A DNA stretch of 48,075 nucleotides, taken from contig CAYUNL010000001.1 of assembly GCA_964446055.1 (NCBI GenBank), forward strand, positions 1-48,075, written 5' to 3'. Shown one piece after another: positions 4,978 to 27,012 of the stretch. Position numbers and translations under genes: made by a program. Source of the DNA: an uncultured Alphaproteobacteria bacterium. Lineage in GTDB: Bacteria; Pseudomonadota; Alphaproteobacteria; VGEJ01. Below the pieces are notes generated by a model. The model was not told where the DNA came from and searched no databases. It worked only from the letters and a program-made list of their open reading frames with translations. Each line of letters starts with the position of its first letter. Position 1 is the stretch's first letter.

Positions 4978-5445
4978 CTAGCCGCCGCTGGCGCCGGGGG
5001 CTTGGAGGTGGGCGGCCAGGCAGTCGTGTCGCGAAATGCCGTTGAGGCCGCGCATCTCGAAGTGGGTGACCGAGGGCCCGCCCTCGCTTTCGTAGAGGAA
5101 GAGGTGAAGCACGCACTCGCTTCCCGCGTATTGCCAGACCTCGGCCGGGGGCTCACGCCGCACCAGTGCAGGGCGGCCCAAGAGCTTCGCCGCCTCGCCG
5201 ACGCTCAAGCCGATAAGCCGTTCGGGATCGGCGTCGACGGCGACATAGGGATCGGGTGCGGAGGCCACGAGCGTCGCGCCGGCCCCGCCCTCGGCGTCGG
5301 GCTCGGCGGGAACCAACTCGACGTCGCTCCCGGCGGCCGCCACGGAAGCACCCGGCTCGGCCGGCGAAATGGGCAGCGTCCCGGTCTCGACGCCACACCC
5401 GGCCGCCGCCGCAAGGGCGCCGAGCGCGAGGATCGAGCGCAGCAC
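4978..5445 (-). CDS. Hypothetical lipoprotein (downstream partner of bactofilin)
   Basis: GTG at 5445 is in frame with track ORF 4978..5670 and lies 8 nt after the bactofilin stop. Signal peptide VLRSILALGALAAAAG|C with a lipobox Cys. No family recognised. Confidence 0.55.
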   Translation of the reverse strand: MLRSILALGALAAAAGCGVETGTLPISPAEPGASVAAAGSDVELVPAEPDAEGGAGATLVASAPDPYVAVDADPERLIGLSVGEAAKLLGRPALVRREPPAEVWQYAGSECVLHLFLYESEGGPSVTHFEMRGLNGISRHDCLAAHLQAPGASGG

Positions 5446-5452
5446 GGCGCTA

Positions 5453-5953
5453 TCAGTCCTTGACCGCCTCCGCTTCCTTCTCCGGCCGCGGATCGGTTGG
5501 GGCCTGGCGGACGGGCGCCGGTGCATCGTCGCCGCCGAGCGCCTGGATGTCCCCGGCCACCTGGCCGCCGCGCTGGATCTCGATCTCGCGATAGCGGATG
5601 GCGCCAGTGATGCGGCCCGTGCCGAGAACGACCAAGCGATTGCGCACTGTGAGCGAGCCCTCGAAATCACCGCTGACCCGCGCGTCCTCGACCTCGGCGA
5701 TACCCTTGAACAGGCCGCCGGCGGCGATCTCGATGGTCTGGCAGGCGCTGAGACTGGCCTCGACCCGCCCCTCGACCACCAGGGTTTCGCAGGCCTCGAT
5801 CTCGCCCGAGAGGCTGATCTCGCCGCCCACGGTCAGCCGTTTCGCGTCAGCGCCCAGGCTCACCGGACCGGTGGCCCTGACCCCAGGTATCTCGGTGACG
5901 CGGCGCGAAATCTCGGGCCGGTACTGGGTGGTTGTCGCGTCGGTGTTTGCCAT
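5453..5953 (-). CDS. Bactofilin (polymer-forming cytoskeletal protein, DUF583)
   Basis: Central beta-helical repeat core typical of bactofilins (LTVGGEISLSGEIEACETLVVEGRVEASL...ARVSGDFEGSLTVRNRLVVLGTGRITGAIRYREIEIQRGGQVAGDI), flanked by short disordered, Pro/Glu-rich termini. Confidence 0.85.
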   Translation of the reverse strand: MANTDATTTQYRPEISRRVTEIPGVRATGPVSLGADAKRLTVGGEISLSGEIEACETLVVEGRVEASLSACQTIEIAAGGLFKGIAEVEDARVSGDFEGSLTVRNRLVVLGTGRITGAIRYREIEIQRGGQVAGDIQALGGDDAPAPVRQAPTDPRPEKEAEAVKD

Positions 5954-5988
5954 GTGAATCCTGTCTTAGGGACTGGGCCGAGCCGGCC

Positions 5989-6666
5989 TCATTCCTCTAG
6001 CCGCTTGTAAATGTGCACCATCGCGGCCGTGGCGATCAGCGGCGTCACTAGGTTGACGATCGGCACCGTGAACAGGAAGGTCATAACGATACCCGCCACG
6101 GACAATCGCCATCGGTACCGCTTCCTCAACTCGAGCGCCGCCTTGCCATCGAGGTGACGCAAGGCGACCAGCTCGAAATACTCGCGGCCCAGAAGATAGC
6201 CGTTTAACCCATAGAAAACAAAGACATTTAGCCCCGGCACAAAGATGTAAATCGGCAACGCGAGGAGGTTTAGCCGGATCACGTCCCACAGGTACTTCAA
6301 TCCAACCGCGAGTCCGCGCCCGATCGAAAGGTCCTTGCCCGGCGGGTCGTTCGGGTAGTGGCGGATCTCGACCGCATCGGCGATGCCCTCGAGGAACATG
6401 CCGACGAAGATCGAGACCAGCACCGTGAAGAGGATCCAGGCGCTTCCCAACAACACCCCGAAGCCCACGATCCAGGCCACGATGTCGAAGAACCAGCCGC
6501 TGAGCCAGCCCGGTACCCAATCCGGGGTGAGCCAATCGATCAACCACCACACCGCCCCGGCAAGGGCGAGGAAGACGATCGCGCCGAACCCCGTGCTCAG
6601 CCACAAGACGCGGCGGAACGCGGGGTCCCAGAGCTGGGCAATGGCCTTGGCGAACGCCGCGATCAC
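5989..6666 (-). CDS. EI24/CysZ-like multi-pass membrane protein
   Basis: GTG 6666 forms a GTGA overlap with the amidase stop (6663-6665). N-terminus VIAAFAKAIAQLWDPAFRRVLWLS plus about 4 TM helices and GLNGYLLGREYFELVA resemble the EI24/CysZ family (from memory). Confidence 0.65.
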   Translation of the reverse strand: MIAAFAKAIAQLWDPAFRRVLWLSTGFGAIVFLALAGAVWWLIDWLTPDWVPGWLSGWFFDIVAWIVGFGVLLGSAWILFTVLVSIFVGMFLEGIADAVEIRHYPNDPPGKDLSIGRGLAVGLKYLWDVIRLNLLALPIYIFVPGLNVFVFYGLNGYLLGREYFELVALRHLDGKAALELRKRYRWRLSVAGIVMTFLFTVPIVNLVTPLIATAAMVHIYKRLEE

Positions 6667-8087
6667 GACGGCGGTCCGCTGACCTCGGTCGGCACCATCG
6701 CCGCGAAGGGCTGCATGGCCTCGAACAGCGCCGCCGCCGCCAGCACCTTGGCTTCGCCGCGCGGCGGGCCGACAATCTGCAGGCCCACCGGCAGCCCCGA
6801 TTCGGTCAAGCCACAGGGGACGGAGATCGCGGGACACGTGGTCAGGGTGATGGCGAAAGAGAGCGCGAGCCAGTTGACGTAGTTTTCGAACTTGGTGCCC
6901 TCAACCTCGGTCACATACCGCAGCGCACCGTCGTATGGCGGCACCACGACGGCGGGACTGAGCAGCAGGTCGTAGTCGTCGAAGAATCCGACCGCGCGGT
7001 GGAACAGCGCCGTGCGCGCACGTTCGGCGCGGCCGATTTCATCGGCGCTCAAACTCAGGCCCTTTTCGATGTTCCAGACGATTTCGGGCTTGAGCTGTGA
7101 GCGATGTTCGTCGAGCAGCGGCGCCTTGTCGGCGGCGAAGTGGGCGGCGCGTAGGGTCTGGAAGATATCCTCGGCGTCGCTGAGGTCGGGACACGCCTCC
7201 TCGACCGCGGCACCGAGGCCAGCGAAGGATTGGGCCGCGGCGGCGCAGATGCCGGCCACCTCAGCCGCCACCGGAACGACGCCGAGGTCACGGCTGTAGG
7301 CCACGCGGCGGGGCGGCGCGGGCTGGAGCGCAGCCTCGAGAAACGGCACTTCGGGCCGGGGCAGCGACAGCGGATCGTCGGGGTGAGCGCCGCATTGGGC
7401 ATCGAGCATCAGCGCGAGATCGGCGACATTGCGCGCCATCGGGCCGGCCACGGTAAGCGCCTGGTAGACGATGCGCCGGGGCCCCGCAGCGACCCGGCCG
7501 GGCGCCGGTCTGATCCCGACGACGCCGCAATAGCTGGCCGGAATCCTGAGACTCCCGCCCATATCGGATCCGGTCGCGAGCCACACCTGGCCAACCGCCA
7601 GCGCCACCGCGGAGCCGCCCGAGGAGCCGCCCGGGGTGAGCGTGGTGTTCCACGGATTGTGGGTGTGCCCGAAGACTTCGTTGAAGGTGTGGGCGCCGGC
7701 GGCGAGCTCGGGGGTGTTCGACTTGGCGAGCACGATGGCGCCGTTTTCCTCGAGCCGCTCGACCTCGTAGCCCGAGCGCTCGGGAACGTGATCGGCGTAG
7801 ATGGGCGAGCCAAAGGTGGTGCGTACACCGGCGACCTCGGTCATGTCCTTGACCGCGATCGGCAGGCCGTGCAGGTGCCACGGCGGGGCGTCTTCGGCCG
7901 GCATTGCCATGAGCCGCTCGGCGTGTCCTCGGGCGCGCTCGGGGCACAGCGTGGGGAGCGCGTTGAGCGCGCCGTCGGTCTCGGAGATGCGGGCGAGCGC
8001 GGCCTCGATGAGCTCAAGCGGCGAAACCTCGCGCCGCGCGAGCTTCGCCACCGCCTCGCGCGCGGTCAGCCGCACCAGCTCATCCAT
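6663..8087 (-). CDS. Amidase-signature family amidase
   Basis: Gly/Ser-rich amidase signature GGSSGGSAVALAVGQVWLATGSDMGGSLRIPASYCG and upstream LHGLPIAVKD. Start MDELVRL at 8087 preferred; ATG at 8129 is possible. Confidence 0.88.
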   Translation of the reverse strand: MDELVRLTAREAVAKLARREVSPLELIEAALARISETDGALNALPTLCPERARGHAERLMAMPAEDAPPWHLHGLPIAVKDMTEVAGVRTTFGSPIYADHVPERSGYEVERLEENGAIVLAKSNTPELAAGAHTFNEVFGHTHNPWNTTLTPGGSSGGSAVALAVGQVWLATGSDMGGSLRIPASYCGVVGIRPAPGRVAAGPRRIVYQALTVAGPMARNVADLALMLDAQCGAHPDDPLSLPRPEVPFLEAALQPAPPRRVAYSRDLGVVPVAAEVAGICAAAAQSFAGLGAAVEEACPDLSDAEDIFQTLRAAHFAADKAPLLDEHRSQLKPEIVWNIEKGLSLSADEIGRAERARTALFHRAVGFFDDYDLLLSPAVVVPPYDGALRYVTEVEGTKFENYVNWLALSFAITLTTCPAISVPCGLTESGLPVGLQIVGPPRGEAKVLAAAALFEAMQPFAAMVPTEVSGPPS

Positions 8088-18893: not shown

Positions 18894-19526
18894 ATGCATA
18901 GGAACACCCAGGCGAGTCTAACAAGACTGGCGGCGCAGCTCAATTTGCGCCACCCCGCGCGGGTGGCGCTGCCCCCGCTGCTGCTGATGAGCGACGCCGC
19001 GCGCCTTGCCGATCCGCGGGCCGCAGCGCGGCTGCTGCCGCGCGGGAGCGCCGTGGTGCTGCGCAACTATGGGAGCCCGGGGCGCGGGGCGTTGGCGGCC
19101 GAGCTGGCGGCGCTTTGTCGCGCCCGTGGACTGATTTTGCTGATCGGCGAGGATGGCGCGTTGGCAACCGAAGTAGGCGCACACGGCCTGCACTTTCCCG
19201 AGGCGCAAGCAGCGCGCGTGCCCGACTGGCGGCGGCGGCGCGGCGATTGGATCATTACCGTGGCCGCACATTCAGCGCCGGCGCTTGCCCGCGCCGCCCG
19301 CGCCGGCGCCGGCGCCGCCGTGTTGGGCCCGGTGTTCGCGAGCGCGAGCCATCTCGGCGCACCGAGTCTGGGTGTGGATCGGTTTGCGGCACTGCTGCGG
19401 GCGAGCCCTATCCCGGTATACGCGCTAGGCGGGATCGATTCGCGCGGGGCGCGCCGCATCGCCTGCAGCGGCGCCATCGGCATCGCCGCCATTGGCGCGC
19501 TCACGCCGCAGGCGAAGCCGGGGTGA
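18894..19526 (+). CDS. Thiamine-phosphate synthase-like (ThiE/TenI family) protein
   Basis: Start MHRNTQ at 18894 (18822 possible but it overlaps yggS). PPLLLMSD, LLIGEDGALATEVGAHGLHFPE, LGPVFAS, PVYALGGI. Its 3' end overlaps the convergent cysNC-like gene by 26 nt. Confidence 0.7.
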   Translation: MHRNTQASLTRLAAQLNLRHPARVALPPLLLMSDAARLADPRAAARLLPRGSAVVLRNYGSPGRGALAAELAALCRARGLILLIGEDGALATEVGAHGLHFPEAQAARVPDWRRRRGDWIITVAAHSAPALARAARAGAGAAVLGPVFASASHLGAPSLGVDRFAALLRASPIPVYALGGIDSRGARRIACSGAIGIAAIGALTPQAKPG

Positions 19527-21219
19527 GCTTGAACTCCGCCTCGACGTAGTCGAGCAAGACATCGACCGAAGCGTTGATCTCGGCACGGTCGGTATCGATC
19601 ACCAAATCGGGCGAATCGGGCGCCTCGTAGGGCGCGGAAATGCCGGTGAATTCGGGAATCTCGCCGGCCCGCGCCTTCTTGTAGAGCCCCTTGGGATCGC
19701 GTGTCTCGCAAGTGGCCAGATCGGCCCGCACGTAGACCTCGGCAAAGGCCTCGGGGTACGCCGCCCGGGCGCGCTCGCGGTCCGAACGGTAGGGCGAGAT
19801 GAAGGCGGTGATGGCGATCAAGCCGGCTCGCGCAAAGAGCGCCCCGACCTCGCCAATCCTGCGGATGTTCTCGGCCCGGTCCTCGGGCGAGAAGCCGAGG
19901 TCCGCGCTCAAGCCATGGCGCAGGTTGTCGCCGTCGAGCACGCCGACCTGGTAGCCCTTCTCAAATAGCCGGCGCTCAGCCTCGGCGGCGATGGTGGACT
20001 TCCCGGCGCCGGAGAGGCCGGTCAACCACAGCACGCCGCCGCGGTGGCCGTTTCGCACCCCCCGTGACTCGGCGCTCACCGCGGCGCCGGCGCGCGAAAC
20101 GTTGGTCGCGCACACGGTGATTAGGCCGCGCTGATCGGCGTAGCCCTCCATGCCGATGGCGCCGGCGCCAACCAACCCCTCGTCACCATGGAGAGCGAGC
20201 CGACCGCAGGGCGGGCAGCGGTCGAAAGGATCTAGGGCGATGATTTCAGGCACGCGGAGAACGCACTCGACGATGTCGCCGGCAACCGCGCTCTGCTCGT
20301 CTTGCTCGGCGAAATCTGGCGTGGAGACGATGCGATCGATCGATTGCACCGTCACGGGATGCTCGACGCCATGGAGGTGCGCGGCGTAGCTCGACCCGGA
20401 CTTGAGCGGAGCGACACCGGTCCAAAACAGCTGGGCGCGGAACACGTCAGTCTCGACCGGCGCGGCGTCGACGTGGCTTGCGAGCTGGCCCGGCGGTACC
20501 GGATCGCCGGGGTCAAGCTCGATCTCTACGGTTTCGCCGGCTTCGGCGCGCTCCTTGGCGGCACCGCTGACGGGGTCGCTGAGCCCGCGCAGCCGCACGG
20601 TCAGGTTCGCGGGCGAGAGAAGGAGTACGTCCCCGACCGCGACGCGACCGCATTCGACGTAGCCGCGAATACGCCCGGCAGCGGCATCGGCTCCAGCGAG
20701 CGAGACACGCAGTGGCAGGTCGCCGCGCGCCGCTGGCTCTGGCGCGGCGAGTGCATCGGCCAACGTGGGACCACGGTGCGGCGCGGGTGCACCCGCCGGT
20801 TCCACAGCCGCCAAGGGAACGACGACGTGTGAGGAGACCCCGATGCGTTCGAAATAAGCGGCGCAATCCCTCGCGGTGCGCGCGAAACGCTCGCCCTCGG
20901 TGGCCTCAAGGCAGACGACCGCGACGACCCGCAGATCGAGCAGGTTGAGCACGAAGGCGGCCGAGCGTACCTCTATGGTCAGCCCACGGTCGGCATCAAT
21001 GGCCAGGAGGACGAGATCCGAGCGTGGACGATCCGCAACCAAGCGGTCGAGAGAATCGGACGAAGCGGGATCGCCGGCGAGACGGTAGGCGCGTCCGCCC
21101 AGAACGAAGATCGCGCGCCCTGGGTCCGCGGCGCCGTCCGCGCGCAAATGTTCGGCGAGCGCGACGCAGGCCCGGCTGTCCCCGGCAAACGCCACGACCG
21201 TCGGTGAGGCGCTAGTCAT
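19501..21219 (-). CDS. CysN-like (degenerate GTPase domain + EF-Tu-like domains II/III) fused to adenylylsulfate (APS) kinase
   Basis: The C-terminal ~190 aa are a canonical APS kinase: LTGLSGAGKSTIA, LDGDNLRHGL, AFISPYRSDR, KGLYKKARAGEIPEFTGISAPYEAP. The N-terminal ~380 aa align by eye to CysN/NodQ (DLVLLAIDADRGL.., GPTLADAL, domain II GRVAVGDVLLL, domain III FRAQLFWTGVAPLKSGSSY). They lack GxxxxGK[ST] and NKxD. Confidence 0.85.
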   Translation of the reverse strand: MTSASPTVVAFAGDSRACVALAEHLRADGAADPGRAIFVLGGRAYRLAGDPASSDSLDRLVADRPRSDLVLLAIDADRGLTIEVRSAAFVLNLLDLRVVAVVCLEATEGERFARTARDCAAYFERIGVSSHVVVPLAAVEPAGAPAPHRGPTLADALAAPEPAARGDLPLRVSLAGADAAAGRIRGYVECGRVAVGDVLLLSPANLTVRLRGLSDPVSGAAKERAEAGETVEIELDPGDPVPPGQLASHVDAAPVETDVFRAQLFWTGVAPLKSGSSYAAHLHGVEHPVTVQSIDRIVSTPDFAEQDEQSAVAGDIVECVLRVPEIIALDPFDRCPPCGRLALHGDEGLVGAGAIGMEGYADQRGLITVCATNVSRAGAAVSAESRGVRNGHRGGVLWLTGLSGAGKSTIAAEAERRLFEKGYQVGVLDGDNLRHGLSADLGFSPEDRAENIRRIGEVGALFARAGLIAITAFISPYRSDRERARAAYPEAFAEVYVRADLATCETRDPKGLYKKARAGEIPEFTGISAPYEAPDSPDLVIDTDRAEINASVDVLLDYVEAEFKLTPASPAA

Positions 21220-21258: not shown

Positions 21259-22089
21259 TCAAGCCGGCAGGTACCCGAAGCGTTCCATCTGATCACGGTG
21301 CGCGCCGAGGACCGCATCGACCTGGGACGCGGACAAGATCTTGCGCCATTGCGCGGCGGTGCCGGAGCGGAAGAACGCCTCGGCGAACATGCTCTTCTCG
21401 CGGAAACCGTGGCGCTGTTCCTGCTCGCGCAAGACATCGAAAGAGGAGAACTCGATGGCACTGGAAAGCCGTTCTTGGGGCGGCTCGAGCCCGAGGAAGG
21501 CTGCCACACTTTGAAACGCGGTCATCGGCTTGGTCAGCATGTCCTCGTAGCGGATCACGTAGAGCGAGGGGGTCGGCGCGTGGGTCCAACTGTGGACGTG
21601 GAGCGACCACGACCCGAAGACCTGATCCACGTTCACGGGATCGGCGAAGGAACGCCCGTTGGGGTCGGCCATGAGCTCGACCGCCTGGTCGACGGTGACA
21701 CCGAGATGGTAGGTTAGAGAAACTGCCACATCCAGCGGATTGCGTACAACATAGATGGCCCCTGCGGTACAGTCCATGGTGATCAGGGGCACGCCGCGGT
21801 CCTCGGCCAAGAGGCTGTGGGTCTTGACGAACACCGAATCGGCGTGGGACTCGCTCATGTGCTGGTGAACCTTGGGCCGAAGCGTCGCAAGTTTCTGGGG
21901 CTCGAGCTCGGCCGCGGGACGTCCCGAAACCCGCTCGTACCAGATCTTCTGCGAATCGCCAAGCGCGAATTGATCGAGCTTGTTGATATCGGCCGGCTGA
22001 TCGGGATTGCGCAGAAGGTTGTGGAGGAAGGCGCGCATCCAGGTGTTGCCGGATTTCGGATACGAGGCGATCCAGATGATGCCGCCCAT
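21259..22089 (-). CDS. Cytosolic-type (PAPS-dependent) sulfotransferase
   Basis: 5'-phosphosulfate-binding loop IASYPKSGNTWMRAFL at the N-terminus and 3'-phosphate-binding-like FFRSGTAAQWRKIL near the C-terminus. 39 nt upstream of the APS-kinase fusion. Confidence 0.85.
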   Translation of the reverse strand: MGGIIWIASYPKSGNTWMRAFLHNLLRNPDQPADINKLDQFALGDSQKIWYERVSGRPAAELEPQKLATLRPKVHQHMSESHADSVFVKTHSLLAEDRGVPLITMDCTAGAIYVVRNPLDVAVSLTYHLGVTVDQAVELMADPNGRSFADPVNVDQVFGSWSLHVHSWTHAPTPSLYVIRYEDMLTKPMTAFQSVAAFLGLEPPQERLSSAIEFSSFDVLREQEQRHGFREKSMFAEAFFRSGTAAQWRKILSASQVDAVLGAHRDQMERFGYLPA

Positions 22090-22119: not shown

Positions 22120-22156
22120 CGAAAAGATAAAGAGGGCGGACCAAAGTCCGCCCTCC
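22120..22156 (-). terminator. Rho-independent terminator of the porin gene
   Basis: Perfect 10-bp stem GAGGGCGGAC (22132-22141) / 4-nt loop / GTCCGCCCTC (22146-22155). On the minus strand it is followed by TTTATCTTTTCGG. Starts about 25 nt after the porin stop. Confidence 0.85.
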
Positions 22157-22179
22157 TCGTTCGGCAAACTGCCGAAGGA

Positions 22180-23340
22180 TTAGAAGAAGATCGACGTGCC
22201 GATGTAGACCGCCGTGGAATCATTCTCGTTGGCAGTCGTCGCCGCGGCCGTCGTCCTGTCGGCCTCGTGCTCGACGAACTGAATGCCCATCTGGAATGAG
22301 ACCCCCGATCCAAGATCGTACTGGCCAGCGACTTCGAGGCGCTTGGCTTCGTCAGAGCCAATGGCGATACCAGTCGCGATCGGAACGTTGACCACTGCCG
22401 CAGCCAGCTCAGTCTCAGTCTCCTGATACTGAAAGCCGACGCCCCACGGACCAGTTACGTACCTGACACCGGCGTTCCAATCTGTGCGATCAGAGTTGGC
22501 CAGGTCGGTGCCGAGGTCCGAATCCTTTAAGCCTGCACCGAAGGTCAAGCTCATCCAGGAGATGCTGGTGCCGATGGTCCAGTCGGTCCGATCCTCAAGG
22601 TTGGCCGCGGCGTTGTCCGCTTCGAGATCACCTTCCGCCCAACCGGCAGAAAAGTTGAGGTCCAGTCCTTCAAAGGACTGCACGAAGTTGGCGCCGACCT
22701 CGAACACCTCCGACTGCTGTGCCGCAGTGTTGTCGAGCTGCGGCGCGAAGGTGCCGTTCGGTGCCTTCGTCGCGTCCGGAGTGTACGATGCGCCGAGCTG
22801 GATGCCGCCCCAGCGCGGCGTAAACAGCGTCATCTTTTCATTAGTACCAGAAATGGTGATCCGCTCCGACGGGCCGCCTGCCTGAAAAGTACCGCCGCCG
22901 GTGATATTCGTGAAGATCGGCGAGTTGAATCCCCAGGCGAACATTGACGGGGTCGGCGCCGCGTAGCCCATAATGTTCGGCGCGCCCTGGCGGGAGCCAA
23001 GCTCCAACCGGAAACCCCCGAACTCCATCCACGCGAAGCCGTCCCGGCCAAGCGTCGCCGCGCCGGCCTGCTCAAAGTTGATGTCACCGGAGATACCCAC
23101 TTGAAGTCCGTTGTCGAGCGTGGTGTCGCCCGAGATCGTGAACGTGCCGAAGCGCTGAAACGCATGATCGCGAGTATTCGCCCCCGGCTCGCCAACGCCG
23201 TCATCCTGGCTAATAGCCGCGAACTGTCCAACCCACCAACCGCTGAGACCGACAGAGATATCCTCCGCCTGCGCAGCCGCGGTCCCACTCAAGAGCCCGG
23301 CAGCGACGAGGGCAGTAGATCCGTAAAGTAATTTCTTCAT
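22180..23340 (-). CDS. Outer-membrane porin (beta-barrel)
   Basis: Start MKKLLYGSTALVAAGLLSGTAAAQA (ATG 23340, in frame with track ORF). Sec signal peptide, alternating amphipathic Gly/aromatic-rich strands, C-terminal ...AVYIGTSIFF ending in Phe. Confidence 0.85.
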   Translation of the reverse strand: MKKLLYGSTALVAAGLLSGTAAAQAEDISVGLSGWWVGQFAAISQDDGVGEPGANTRDHAFQRFGTFTISGDTTLDNGLQVGISGDINFEQAGAATLGRDGFAWMEFGGFRLELGSRQGAPNIMGYAAPTPSMFAWGFNSPIFTNITGGGTFQAGGPSERITISGTNEKMTLFTPRWGGIQLGASYTPDATKAPNGTFAPQLDNTAAQQSEVFEVGANFVQSFEGLDLNFSAGWAEGDLEADNAAANLEDRTDWTIGTSISWMSLTFGAGLKDSDLGTDLANSDRTDWNAGVRYVTGPWGVGFQYQETETELAAAVVNVPIATGIAIGSDEAKRLEVAGQYDLGSGVSFQMGIQFVEHEADRTTAAATTANENDSTAVYIGTSIFF

Positions 23341-23608: not shown

Positions 23609-25558
23609 GTGACGCGCAAGCCCTTAGCGAGCCTTCATCCGAGCTCGACGCCGGGCGCGGAGGCGTCCACGGTTTCGCTAGGGCTAGAGGAGGCCGTGCG
23701 GATTCACCGCGCCGGCGACCTCGAAGGCGCGGCGGCGCTCTACCGCGAAGCCCTGGAGGCCAATCCCGGCAATGCCGATGCATTGAACCTGCTGGGACTG
23801 ACGCTCCACCAGCGCGGTGATCATGACGGCGCAGTGGCACGCCTTCGCGCGGCTATTCGCCTCGCCCCGCGTACCGCGGCCTTTCACGCCAACCTCGGCC
23901 GCGCCCTCGCCTCCGCCGGCGCGCTGGAGCAGGCGGCAGCGTCGCTTTCGACCGCCGCCAAGCTCAACCCCAGTGACGCGGCCGCGCATTTCCACCTCGG
24001 CACCGCGCTCATCGACTTGGGGCGGCCAGACGATGCGGTCGAGTACTTTCGTGCCGTCGTCCGCCTGCGGCCCGATTCCCCCGAGCACCTGGTAAATCTG
24101 GCGCACGCCTTGCGCGTCGCAGGAAGGCTGGAGGAGTCGGCCGCGGCGTACCGCCAAGCCTTGGACCGCGACCCCGACAACGCGGAGTGTCAGGGGGCGC
24201 TGGGCTCGGTGCTACAGCGCCTGGGCCAGAACGACGCGGCGCTCGCGTGCTACGCGCGCGCCCTAGACTTGAACGCCCGGCTCACAAACGCACACCTCAA
24301 CGCCGGCGATATCCAACGCGATACCGGCCACCCCGACGAGGCGCTGAGGCACTACCGCGCCGCGCGGGCCATCGAACCCGAGGACGAAACCGCTATCACC
24401 CAGGAAGCCACCCTCCACGAGCGACAGGGCGACTTCGAGCGAGCTTGCGCGCTGATACTGCCCTTGATCGACGGCGGCAGCCGCGTGCCGAGCACGGTGC
24501 TCGCGTTCGCCCGCCTCGCGGACCGGCTCGAAAGGCGCGGGGAGGCACAATCCCTGCTGGAGAAGTGCCTGCAGCGGCCCGGAGTTTCGCCGCATCGCCG
24601 CCAACTCCTCCACGCCGCCCTGGCTAACCTCTACGACAAAGCGGGCGCGGTCGACGCCGCGTTCCGCAACACTGCGGCCGCGAATGGCCTTACGGCGCGC
24701 CGCTTCGATCCCCTCCAGCACGAGGCCCTGGTGGACCGGCTGATCGACACGCTGAACGCCTCGGCGCTGCGCCGGTTGCCGCGGGCCTCGCACGGTTCGC
24801 GACTCCCCGTGTTCATCGTCGGCATGCCGCGCTCGGGCACGACCCTGGTCGAGCAGATTCTGGCCTCCCATCCGCGCGTGTTCGGCGCCGGCGAGCTCAC
24901 CGATGTCCAGAATCTCCCTGCCACCATCTGCGACCGATTGGGCGTTGCCATTCCCTATCCGGAGATGCTGGTTGATCTCGACTTCGGCACGGCCGATGCG
25001 GTCGCACAGCTCTATCTCGACAAGCTACGCGAGATGGGCGGCGGCGCAGCGCGAATCACCGACAAGATGCCCCACAACTTCTTGCACCTCGGCCTGATCG
25101 CGCTTTTGTTCCCGGAGGCGGCGATCATCCATTGCGTGCGCGACGCGGTCGACACCTGCGCCTCGTGTTTCTTCCAGAACTTCGGCGATCGCAACCCCTA
25201 CACCGCCGATCTCGCCCACCTTGGCGCCTATTACGTCCAGTACCGGCGCTTGATGCGCCACTGGCAAGAGGCTCTCGACCGCCCGATTCTCGATGTGGTC
25301 TACGAGGACCTGGTGGGGGATGTGGAAGGTACCACTCGGGCAATGCTCAATTGCTGCGGTCTGGAGTGGGAGGTGGCCTGCCTTCGCTTCCACGAGAACC
25401 GACGTTTCGTGCAGAGCGCGAGCCACGACCAGGTACGGCGGCCGCTGTATGCGACCTCGATCGGCCGTAGCCGCCGCTATCTCGCCCACCTCGCGCCGTT
25501 GCTCGCGGTCCTCTCGGAGGCGGGAGAGATACCGCGGGACCTGGCCGACGTGAAGTAA
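23609..25558 (+). CDS. TPR-repeat protein fused to a C-terminal sulfotransferase domain
   Basis: The N-terminal ~330 aa are serial TPRs (ALYREALEANPGNADALNLLGLTLHQRGD.., AHFHLGTALIDLGRPDDAVEYF.. etc.). The C-terminal ~250 aa carry the PAPS 5'-phosphate loop FIVGMPRSGTTLVEQILASH and a conserved tail ACLRFHENRRFVQSASHDQVRRPLYATSIGR. GTG start per the track is uncertain. Confidence 0.85.
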   Translation: MTRKPLASLHPSSTPGAEASTVSLGLEEAVRIHRAGDLEGAAALYREALEANPGNADALNLLGLTLHQRGDHDGAVARLRAAIRLAPRTAAFHANLGRALASAGALEQAAASLSTAAKLNPSDAAAHFHLGTALIDLGRPDDAVEYFRAVVRLRPDSPEHLVNLAHALRVAGRLEESAAAYRQALDRDPDNAECQGALGSVLQRLGQNDAALACYARALDLNARLTNAHLNAGDIQRDTGHPDEALRHYRAARAIEPEDETAITQEATLHERQGDFERACALILPLIDGGSRVPSTVLAFARLADRLERRGEAQSLLEKCLQRPGVSPHRRQLLHAALANLYDKAGAVDAAFRNTAAANGLTARRFDPLQHEALVDRLIDTLNASALRRLPRASHGSRLPVFIVGMPRSGTTLVEQILASHPRVFGAGELTDVQNLPATICDRLGVAIPYPEMLVDLDFGTADAVAQLYLDKLREMGGGAARITDKMPHNFLHLGLIALLFPEAAIIHCVRDAVDTCASCFFQNFGDRNPYTADLAHLGAYYVQYRRLMRHWQEALDRPILDVVYEDLVGDVEGTTRAMLNCCGLEWEVACLRFHENRRFVQSASHDQVRRPLYATSIGRSRRYLAHLAPLLAVLSEAGEIPRDLADVK

Positions 25559-25589
25559 CCAGCGGGCATGGTCGGCGCTCGGGCCAGGC

Positions 25590-26406
25590 GCGTCAAGAAG
25601 CGGCCCAAGGTGGCTTCGATGGTCTCTCCAGCGGCCGATCGAGGTCGCATACAGCGGCCGCCGCACTTGTGCGCCGCTCGCCGATTGCACCGTGCGCTCG
25701 GTCTCGTGGAAGCGAAGGCACGCCGCCTGCCAAGGGGGCTCTCGGCAGATTTCCAAATGTGCCGTTTCTCAGCCTCCTGGTCCGAGACCAGGGCTTCGCA
25801 AGAAACATCGGGAGACCGACCAGTAAGCACCGCGGCCCAATTGCGCATCAGGCGCTGAGGATCACCCCATTGCTTCGTGCTCTGACGGACGGACGTACTG
25901 ATTTCCAAGGCGAGGTGTACCTCCGCAATCGCCTCGCCGAGATGGCCACGGTCCAGCAGGAGCGCGCCAAGTTTTGTGGGCTTCGGCGTAGTCCGACTCG
26001 AGCGCGACCGCCCGGCGCAGTGCGGCCTCGGCCCCCCGACATCGCCCAGCTCGGCGAGGACTAGGCCGAGGTTGTTGTGGGCTTGCGCGTCATTCGGCGC
26101 GAGCTCGATGGCGCGATGGAAGGCGCTTGCGGCGTCGCGAAAGCGCCCCAGCTCGGCGCGCGCGCGGCCAAGGTTGTAGTGGACATCGGCGCGCTCGGCC
26201 GCGTGTCCGGCGGCGCGTTCGAGAAGCACGAGCGCCTCGTCGCTGGCACCGGTTTGGACAAGCGCAACTCCGCCCAGGTTCAATGCGTCCACGTTGTCAG
26301 GCTCGGCGGCGAGCACGCGGCGATAGCGGGTCAGCGCTTCCCCGTAGCGGCCGGCCTGATGGAGCGCTACGGCATCCTCGAGGTCGCGCGAAACAGGCGC
26401 CGCCAC
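25590..26406 (-). pseudogene. Decayed paralog of the TPR-sulfotransferase gene (TPR N-terminus, internal frameshifts, large internal deletion, sulfotransferase C-terminal tail only)
   Basis: GTG 26406 opens VAAPVSRDLEDAVALHQAGRYGEALTRYRRVLAAEPDNVDALNLGG.. (TPRs). The TPR reading leaves the frame at the G6 run (plus-strand C6, 26032-26037) and returns at A4 (plus-strand T4, 25972-25975). The tail WQAACLRFHETERTVQSASGAQVRRPLYATSIGR sits in another frame (track ORF 25025..25756). The PAPS-binding loop is absent. Confidence 0.6.
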
Positions 26407-26415
26407 GGTCGCTGG

Positions 26416-26904
26416 TCAGGAACTCTCGAGCGGTTGCAGCGAGGGTTGCGTCAGTTGCCGCTGCTTGCGGGCGGCGGTGGAGCGGACTGCCGCCTTCGCG
26501 CCGGCGTGATGAGGAGACAGCGCGAGAGCGCGGCGACATGCCGACTCCGCTTCGTCGAACCGGCGCAACCGGGCAAGCGCCACGCCAAGGTTGTAGTGGG
26601 TGTCGGCAGCACCGGGGTTGTGGCGCACGGCCGCGCCGAGTAGCTCGATCGCCGCATCATACGCGCCGGCCTGGATCGCAGCGATTCCGGCAAGGTTAAG
26701 AGCATCGACATCGTCGGGCCGAACGGCGAGAAACAAGTGATACAGCCGCAGCGCTTCGTGCACCCGGCCTTCATCATGGGCGGCGATCGCCAGTTGCAAA
26801 CCCCGCGGGCGCTTCTCCTCGTGCCGGCGTGCGCCGCGGCCGCCAATGCTTGACCGCGCGGCGCGCCTCACATTCCCGCGGCGGCGGCGCTCCCGGCGGT
26901 TCAT
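26416..26904 (-). CDS. Short TPR-only protein, paralogous to the N-termini of the neighbouring TPR-sulfotransferase genes
   Basis: Start MNRRERRRR (ATG 26904; 26943 possible). Three TPRs: ALRLYHLFLAVRPDDVDALNLAGIAAIQAGAYDAAIELLGAAVRHNPGAADTHYNLGVALARLRRFDEAESACRRALALSP. Stop lies 9 nt before the GTG of the decayed paralog. Confidence 0.6.
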   Translation of the reverse strand: MNRRERRRRGNVRRAARSSIGGRGARRHEEKRPRGLQLAIAAHDEGRVHEALRLYHLFLAVRPDDVDALNLAGIAAIQAGAYDAAIELLGAAVRHNPGAADTHYNLGVALARLRRFDEAESACRRALALSPHHAGAKAAVRSTAARKQRQLTQPSLQPLESS

Positions 26905-27012
26905 CGCCTCACTGGCACCGCTTGTAGGGTGGCCGTCGCGCAATTCATCATCGTCTGGCTTGCTGTTCCGAACGCTGGTTCGAACACTCGGCGCGGCGCA
27001 GCTTAGCGCCTA

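Follow-up and report, generated by a model that had tools for sequence, protein, structure and literature searches.

The window analysed here, a stretch of 48,075 nucleotides from an uncultured alphaproteobacterium (contig CAYUNL010000001.1), carries on its minus strand an open reading frame (ORF) for a 572-residue fusion of a CysN-derived region with an adenosine 5'-phosphosulfate (APS) kinase (19501..21219; ORF, Pfam and NCBIfam evidence), in which the GTPase motifs of CysN are lost and the kinase motifs are intact. MAFFT and hhalign alignments, an AlphaFold2 model and Foldseek delimited a pseudo-G domain at residues 1-165 (20725..21219, minus strand), which is followed by the CysN beta-barrel domains II (166-255) and III (256-356) at 20152..20724 (minus strand; Pfam GTP-eEF1A_C, hhalign, predicted local distance difference test (pLDDT) values of 80-93). 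A conserved linker together with the N-terminal segment of the kinase (MEGYADQRGLITV.ATNVS..., residues 357-392; 20044..20151, minus strand) was recognised by its invariant columns, of which M357, G359, Y360, D362, Q363, R364 and N373 in the linker are common to genuine CysN/CysC fusions (CysNC) and to forms with a dead G domain. The APS kinase domain occupies residues 393-560 (19540..20043, minus strand) as evident from PF01583, TIGR00455 and a match to human PAPSS1. The position of the start codon is kept in orthologues, and upstream of it there are only nine further open codons and a spacer of 39 nt to the stop codon of the preceding gene. This rules out a hidden N-terminal P-loop or a lost N-terminal piece, and a P-loop concealed upstream or in another frame was rejected on the same grounds.

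The family profiles reflect this layout. Pfam revealed GTP-eEF1A_C (domain III of EF1A/CysN) at residues 260-355 and no GTP_EFTU domain anywhere in the fusion. The NCBIfam CysN model TIGR02034 scored 68.7 bits against a cut-off of 336.1 and covered profile positions 102-392 only, and the model for bifunctional CysN/CysC, NF004035, scored 297.9 bits against a cut-off of 715 over profile positions 127-629 only. Thus, the fusion does not match a full-length CysN/CysC profile above the curated cut-off; the succession of domains II and III and a C-terminal APS kinase, and common descent with CysNC, were recovered by Pfam, hhalign and the tree described below.

To locate the GTP-binding motifs, the fusion was aligned with genuine CysNC using MAFFT and hhalign profile-profile comparison (probability 100%, residues 34-571 against 74-625). 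In both alignments, the segment DLVLLAIDADRGL of the fusion pairs with DAALLLIDAAEGV of genuine CysNC. The first-pass annotation, made by a model from the letters alone, had proposed this pairing and had recognised CysN domains II/III, and Pfam, MAFFT and hhalign bear this out. G1 (GHVDHGKS) is deleted, with the remnant AGDSRAC (residues 12-18; 21166-21186, minus strand) between strand 1 and helix 1, and about 40 residues comprising switch I/G2 are deleted as well. G3 (DxPGH; DAPGH) is replaced by GDPAS (residues 49-53; AGDPAS at 21061-21078, minus strand), G4 (NKxD; NKMD) by CLEA (residues 103-106; 20902-20913, minus strand) and G5 (SA) by LA (remnant PLAA at 20806-20817, minus strand). DRGLTIE (residues 77-83) was considered as a displaced G2 (RGITI) and rejected, as MAFFT, HMMER and hhalign all placed it after G3, opposite DAAEGVREQ. 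Among genuine CysNC, G1-G4 are invariant in 16 of 16 sequences; across 18 aligned dead forms, not one of the first 170 positions is invariant. Judged by G1, G2/switch I, G3 and G4, the fusion therefore falls outside CysN/CysC. The earlier observation that the first ~170 residues contain no P-loop, no NKxD and no Lys was upheld, and the profile alignment that it had called for, scoring G1-G5, brought no intact G motif to light. The absence of Lys extends even through residue 221, the first Lys being residue 222, with eight in the other 351 residues; at the latter rate, the chance of such an absence is ~0.006.

The AlphaFold2 model of the fusion, which was built on 21 sequences and had an overall pLDDT of 77.7, showed residues 7-135 as an alternating beta/alpha domain (block pLDDT 53-91), with a beta1-alpha1 loop of only 1-2 residues at the expected site of the P-loop. 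A Foldseek search with the first three domains matched EF1A and CysN with template modelling (TM) scores of up to 0.71; for the CysN structure 1zun_B, the TM score was 0.67 over 391 columns. Going by the model, the G-domain fold appears to be kept with its nucleotide site lost. From the absent P-loop and the lost G3 and G4 motifs, we infer that the N-terminal remnant neither binds nor hydrolyses GTP. In this respect, the fusion resembles known pseudoGTPases without nucleotide binding (pG1/pG2 of p190RhoGAP, PMC5593906; AAGAB, PMC12490416), where a G fold without G motifs is likewise part of a larger protein. Those examples, however, are Ras-like and belong to eukaryotic signalling, whereas the predicted pseudo-G domain is of translation-factor-type origin and resides in a bacterial metabolic enzyme.

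The C-terminal half conforms with a complete APS kinase. PF01583 (APS_kinase) was matched at residues 394-542 with 218 bits (E 6e-65); TIGR00455, whose cut-off is 138.7, gave 251.5 bits, and the match to the human PAPSS1 kinase domain was full-length (E 3e-55). The Walker A motif GLSGAGKST (19993-20019), LDGDNLR (19918-19938), FISPY (19789-19803) and the lid motif KGLYKKAR (19669-19692), all on the minus strand, are invariant across the family, so that by both profile and motifs the protein belongs to the APS kinases, as the first reading of these four motifs had already suggested. The fusion is most likely an APS kinase, converting APS and ATP to 3'-phosphoadenosine 5'-phosphosulfate (PAPS) and ADP, an activity predicted from these motifs. 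Stand-alone CysC and the PAPSS1 kinase domain share all the catalytic motifs, and presumably the activity; the fusion differs from them by its additional 390-residue, non-catalytic, CysN-derived N-terminal extension.

Next to the fusion, 39 nt upstream, lies the gene of a SULT-like sulfotransferase of 276 aa, termed ST1 (21259..22089, minus strand; Pfam Sulfotransfer_1, E 1e-28), the nearest solved structures of which are Teg12/Teg14/StaL and SULT1A1. It is preceded by a porin gene (22180..23340, minus strand; Porin_4 family in orthologues), a conserved member of the module, with the likely start MKKLLYG at 23340. In the gap between porin gene and ST1, a terminator-like hairpin with a 13-bp GC-rich stem followed by a T run was found (22129..22158, minus strand; consensus match only), and no terminator-like site was found between ST1 and the fusion. 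This arrangement suggests a two-gene operon, with ST1 and the fusion being probably co-transcribed and the porin gene being transcribed separately. Further upstream, a TPST-like sulfotransferase of 649 aa with tetratricopeptide repeats (TPR) is encoded on the plus strand (23609..25558; Pfam TPR and Sulfotransfer_3, E 2e-47); its nearest solved structures are protein-tyrosine sulfotransferases.

In close relatives, the conserved gene order is leuS, DUF3576, two TPR-sulfotransferase genes, porin, Sulfotransfer_1, fusion, tenI, yggS and lutABC, and the order TPR-sulfotransferase, porin, ST1, dead CysNC, tenI and yggS holds across several families. In a tblastn comparison of the window proteins with 22 loci, checked with Pfam, 17 loci were dead or G-less. 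At 14 of these 17, from several families, ST1 immediately preceded the CysNC-derived gene, usually with the porin and TPR-sulfotransferase genes upstream and tenI-yggS downstream. At genuine loci (L017-L019), cysD lies directly upstream of cysNC, and it is this slot that ST1 holds at the dead loci. One of these, L019, carries its genuine cysD-cysNC pair at the very same tenI-yggS site, which argues for decay of the G domain in place, with the sulfotransferase now in the cysD slot. The module, which combines a porin and a supply of PAPS with sulfotransferases of two kinds, marks a conserved putative sulfation locus in uncultured Alphaproteobacteria.

A word-indexed search returned ten orthologues with 59-70% identity, all of them without PF00009, followed by genuine CysNC with 35-38% identity. 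An exhaustive search with residues 1-375 against 1.84 billion representatives added about a dozen further 50%-identity clusters with the switch I deletion. Most of the genomes compared are metagenome-assembled genomes (MAGs). A careful maximum-likelihood (ML) tree was calculated from domains II/III and the kinase only, leaving out the columns of the trait itself, the G domain. It united at least 32 dead-G (switch-I-deleted) sequences and three G-less sequences in one clade (ultrafast bootstrap (UFBoot) 100/Shimodaira-Hasegawa-like approximate likelihood ratio test (SH-aLRT) 95), which is nested among genuine alphaproteobacterial CysNC in this as well as in a quick tree. The tree implies that the dead forms arose once and then eroded, and that the G domain disappeared entirely on at least two occasions. 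The survey proposed in the first-pass annotation thus found the degenerate-G homologs to form one clade and to co-occur with sulfotransferases (the 14 of 17 loci above).

Members of the clade differ in what is left of the G motifs. In the window's genus, all of them are gone; L020, L021 and P0026 keep NKxD only, and G013 keeps DHAGH. One sequence (P0031/L085), from a 62% complete genome (G166:C89), keeps the P-loop GPRGAGKT, TKSD and SAR, is devoid of switch I and DxxG, and may represent a nucleotide-binding intermediate stage. The G-less relatives, of 405-416 aa, have no G domain at all. The clade would thereby offer a natural series of pseudoenzyme-domain formation after partner loss, the whole of it at one conserved locus, from the intact domain over deletion of switch I with the P-loop kept, NKxD only and loss of all motifs to deletion of the G domain.

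CysN-like matches occurred in 157 of 401 evenly sampled alphaproteobacterial genomes, and only about ten of these were dead or G-less. Neither bit score nor match range separated dead from genuine forms cleanly in this sample, and the candidate sequences were read instead. In the course of this, two candidates (L086, L087) were rejected as genuine CysNC cut by contig ends, and two more (P0119, P0037) as truncated or frameshifted gene calls. A different architecture was seen in L092 (G161:C7, locus 5260-7320) and P0024, where CysD (PAPS_reduct) is fused directly to CysN domains II/III and an APS kinase and the G domain is missing. L092, at the same tenI-yggS locus, is the sister of the dead-G clade and has a weak, partial CysD match (31 bits); P0024 has a full PAPS_reduct match of 101.6 bits.

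The window comes from a 3.16-Mb MAG (G000) that consists of 452 contigs and is 91% complete. No cysD was found in the window, as noted in the first reading, nor in this whole 91% complete genome, and no genuine CysN was found there either. A Sat-type ATP sulfurylase is present, CysQ scored above the cut-off, and the one CysH has the cysteines CC...CSTC...ECGIH. By established family knowledge (reviewed in PMC1175818), these are the typical cysteines of an APS reductase, which implies that cysteine synthesis in this genome needs no PAPS. The GTDB order of the window comprises six genomes from five genera (91-100% complete); the dead fusion and Sat were each found in six of six, and CysD in none, the sole matches being CysH-like at 21-30 bits. 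A CysD partner, adjacent or elsewhere in the genome, as would be expected for CysN/CysC, is thus lacking for the fusion. Absence of CysD and presence of Sat were also found in G004, G005, G020 and G204. Two genera of the family have no APS kinase besides the fusion. Both genomes of the window's genus have, in addition, a divergent stand-alone CysC-like gene (~121 bits; G000:C368:93-536, L002, and G011:C3:1398249-1398692), with one in-frame TAG in the G011 copy.

Pairwise Nei-Gojobori estimates among five orthologues placed dN/dS at 0.22-0.61 in the dead G domain and at 0.23-0.35 in domains II/III, with values of 0.06-0.26 in the linker and 0.09-0.18 in the kinase; these values are rough, with dS at 0.3-1.1 in a GC-rich genome with strong codon bias. 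All parts of the fusion are under purifying selection, and the dead G domain is the most relaxed. Together with the absent P-loop and the conserved kinase, this selection across many genomes supports the idea, put forward in the first-pass annotation, of a pseudo-GTPase retained on an active APS kinase.

Taken as a whole, it is likely that the gene is the product of in-place decay of a CysNC to an APS-kinase-only fusion that feeds sulfotransferases and carries its remnant as a structural appendage. The ancestor would have been the cysNC gene in a sulfate-activation operon of the NodPQ type (cysD-cysNC) at tenI-yggS. Within one lineage of Alphaproteobacteria, the G domain of CysN would have lost its switch I segment; cysD would have been lost from the locus and, in most genomes with dead forms, from the genome, with a SULT-like gene in its former slot, and P-loop, DxxG and NKxD would have been lost stepwise afterwards. 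The CysN surface that contacts CysD corresponds to the aa-tRNA surface of EF-Tu, includes the beta-barrel domain and adjoins the switch regions (PMC5770160); since these adjoining regions are deleted, residual binding of CysD by the fusion is unlikely. The sulfotransferase in the cysD slot, the combination of no CysD with Sat in six of six genomes and the APS-reductase type of CysH make it most likely that the fusion acts as APS kinase only, for the benefit of the neighbouring sulfotransferases. In the resulting scheme, the fusion would now be functional through its C-terminal half only; Sat would make APS, part of which the fusion would turn into PAPS for consumption by the co-transcribed ST1 and the nearby TPR sulfotransferase, CysQ would clear or recycle the by-product PAP (adenosine 3',5'-bisphosphate), and CysH would reduce APS directly for assimilation.

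The three-domain N-terminal remnant would be kept under relaxed constraint as an appendage of the kinase, aiding folding, oligomer geometry or partner docking. Family-wide, the conserved positions of the dead domain are fold-core positions common with genuine CysN, domains II/III are kept in every variant, the G-less ones included, and the G domain was dropped repeatedly. On these grounds, the remnant is read as a structural appendage of decreasing importance; for the dead CysN part we infer a scaffold or structural role, in which domains II/III would count for more than the G-domain remnant.

Several observations weigh against this account. The G domain was fully lost at least twice within the clade, which weakens any claim of an important role and implies that it is at most weakly needed. 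P0031/L085, with its P-loop and TKSD, suggests that some family members might still bind nucleotide. CysD loss and ST1 linkage are common but have exceptions: two genomes of family f11 (G208, G338) have the dead form without an adjacent sulfotransferase and a standard CysD elsewhere, and CysD is likewise encoded elsewhere in the G-less genomes G007-G009, so that a general rule of dead form without CysD fails. The stand-alone CysC-like gene means that the fusion is not provably the only source of PAPS in the window's genus, and the roughness of the dN/dS values bears on the selection argument.

The same repeated losses of the G domain could mean that the whole N-terminal region is a roleless relic on its way to deletion, its constraint reflecting no more than the penalty for misfolding within a fused protein. 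The lack of any family-wide invariant residue in the first 170 positions and the highest dN/dS of all parts in the dead G domain are in line with this, as is a second, frameshifted copy in a genome of the same genus. We regard this as possible, yet doubtful: the complete remnant of three domains has stayed in frame, with few indels, in no fewer than five genera of one family as well as in several other families, at dN/dS values well below 1. The second copy itself (L016/G011:C3:3263561-3264975) lies ~60 kb from the intact one and is split as well as frameshifted; P0010 and P0012 end in out-of-frame sequence.

Alternatively, the dead CysN part, and domains II/III in particular, could have been re-used as a docking adaptor to ST1 or Sat that channels APS/PAPS. 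Such a role would fit the position of ST1 in what is cysD's slot at genuine loci, the retention of domains II/III in every variant under stronger constraint than the G domain, and the contribution of the beta-barrel domain to the CysD contact surface (PMC5770160). However, nothing by way of fusion, co-variation or structure points to contact with ST1 or Sat, the f11 members have no adjacent sulfotransferase, and the conserved residues of the dead domain form the shared fold core and no new surface patch, making docking improbable as the explanation. If true, it would amount to a PAPS-channelling sulfation complex, in which a GTP-driven sulfate activator was converted by partner swap to GTP-independent delivery of PAPS.

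It is very unlikely that the domain still acts as a non-canonical sensor of a nucleotide or some other ligand and exerts allosteric control over the kinase. This reading draws on the basal member P0031/L085 with its P-loop, TKSD and SAR, on NKxD in L020/L021 and on the generally known case of fungal ATP sulfurylase, where the dead domain is the allosteric site (PDB 1i2d/1m8p), but the window protein has no phosphate-binding loop and all its residues for base specificity and Mg binding are replaced. Given the same unbroken architecture in independent assemblies, including contigs of several megabases, and purifying selection in all parts, it is hardly credible that the gene is a broken pseudogene, a product of misassembly or a wrongly called ORF, as could be suspected from the fragmentation of the MAG.

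With decay to an APS-kinase-only fusion as the favoured account, the protein can be compared with known sulfate-activation enzymes. With CysN/CysC (NodQ of Sinorhizobium meliloti, Rv1286 of M. tuberculosis, CysN of P. syringae, 1ZUN), it shares the order of G domain, domains II and III and APS kinase, as well as the linker, and it descends from the alphaproteobacterial CysNC, its locus being that of a relative's genuine cysD-cysNC; unlike these, it has neither G1-G4 nor switch I nor a CysD partner, and a sulfotransferase gene takes the cysD position. In fungal ATP sulfurylase, the C-terminal APS-kinase-like domain has a demonstrated allosteric role. Like the fusion, the enzyme of Penicillium chrysogenum (PDB 1I2D/1M8P) is a sulfate-activation enzyme carrying a catalytically dead copy of a pathway partner; the arrangement is mirrored and the folds are unrelated, with a dead kinase on a live sulfurylase in the fungus and a dead GTPase on a predicted live kinase in the fusion. 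No description of a GTPase-dead CysN was found in the literature covered, which was incomplete and included the translational GTPase surveys PMC1780047 and PMC4342817. Annotation pipelines label such proteins as 'adenylyl-sulfate kinase' or 'bifunctional CysN/CysC', and the latter label wrongly implies GTP-dependent sulfate activation in genomes without CysD.

Two further observations concern the neighbouring genes. Remnants of TPR-sulfotransferase paralogues lie on the minus strand of the window at 25560-26943, where relatives have two intact genes; two of them are N-terminal TPR fragments (26416-26943 and 25477-26406), and a third, inside the ORF 25025-25756 (minus strand), is the C-terminal tail of a sulfotransferase. 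The sole intact TPR-sulfotransferase gene (23609-25558) is on the opposite strand relative to the relatives, which suggests an inversion accompanied by decay. In one related locus (L013), a group II intron-type reverse transcriptase gene (RVT_1 and GIIM; 5820-6977) is inserted between the porin gene and ST1.

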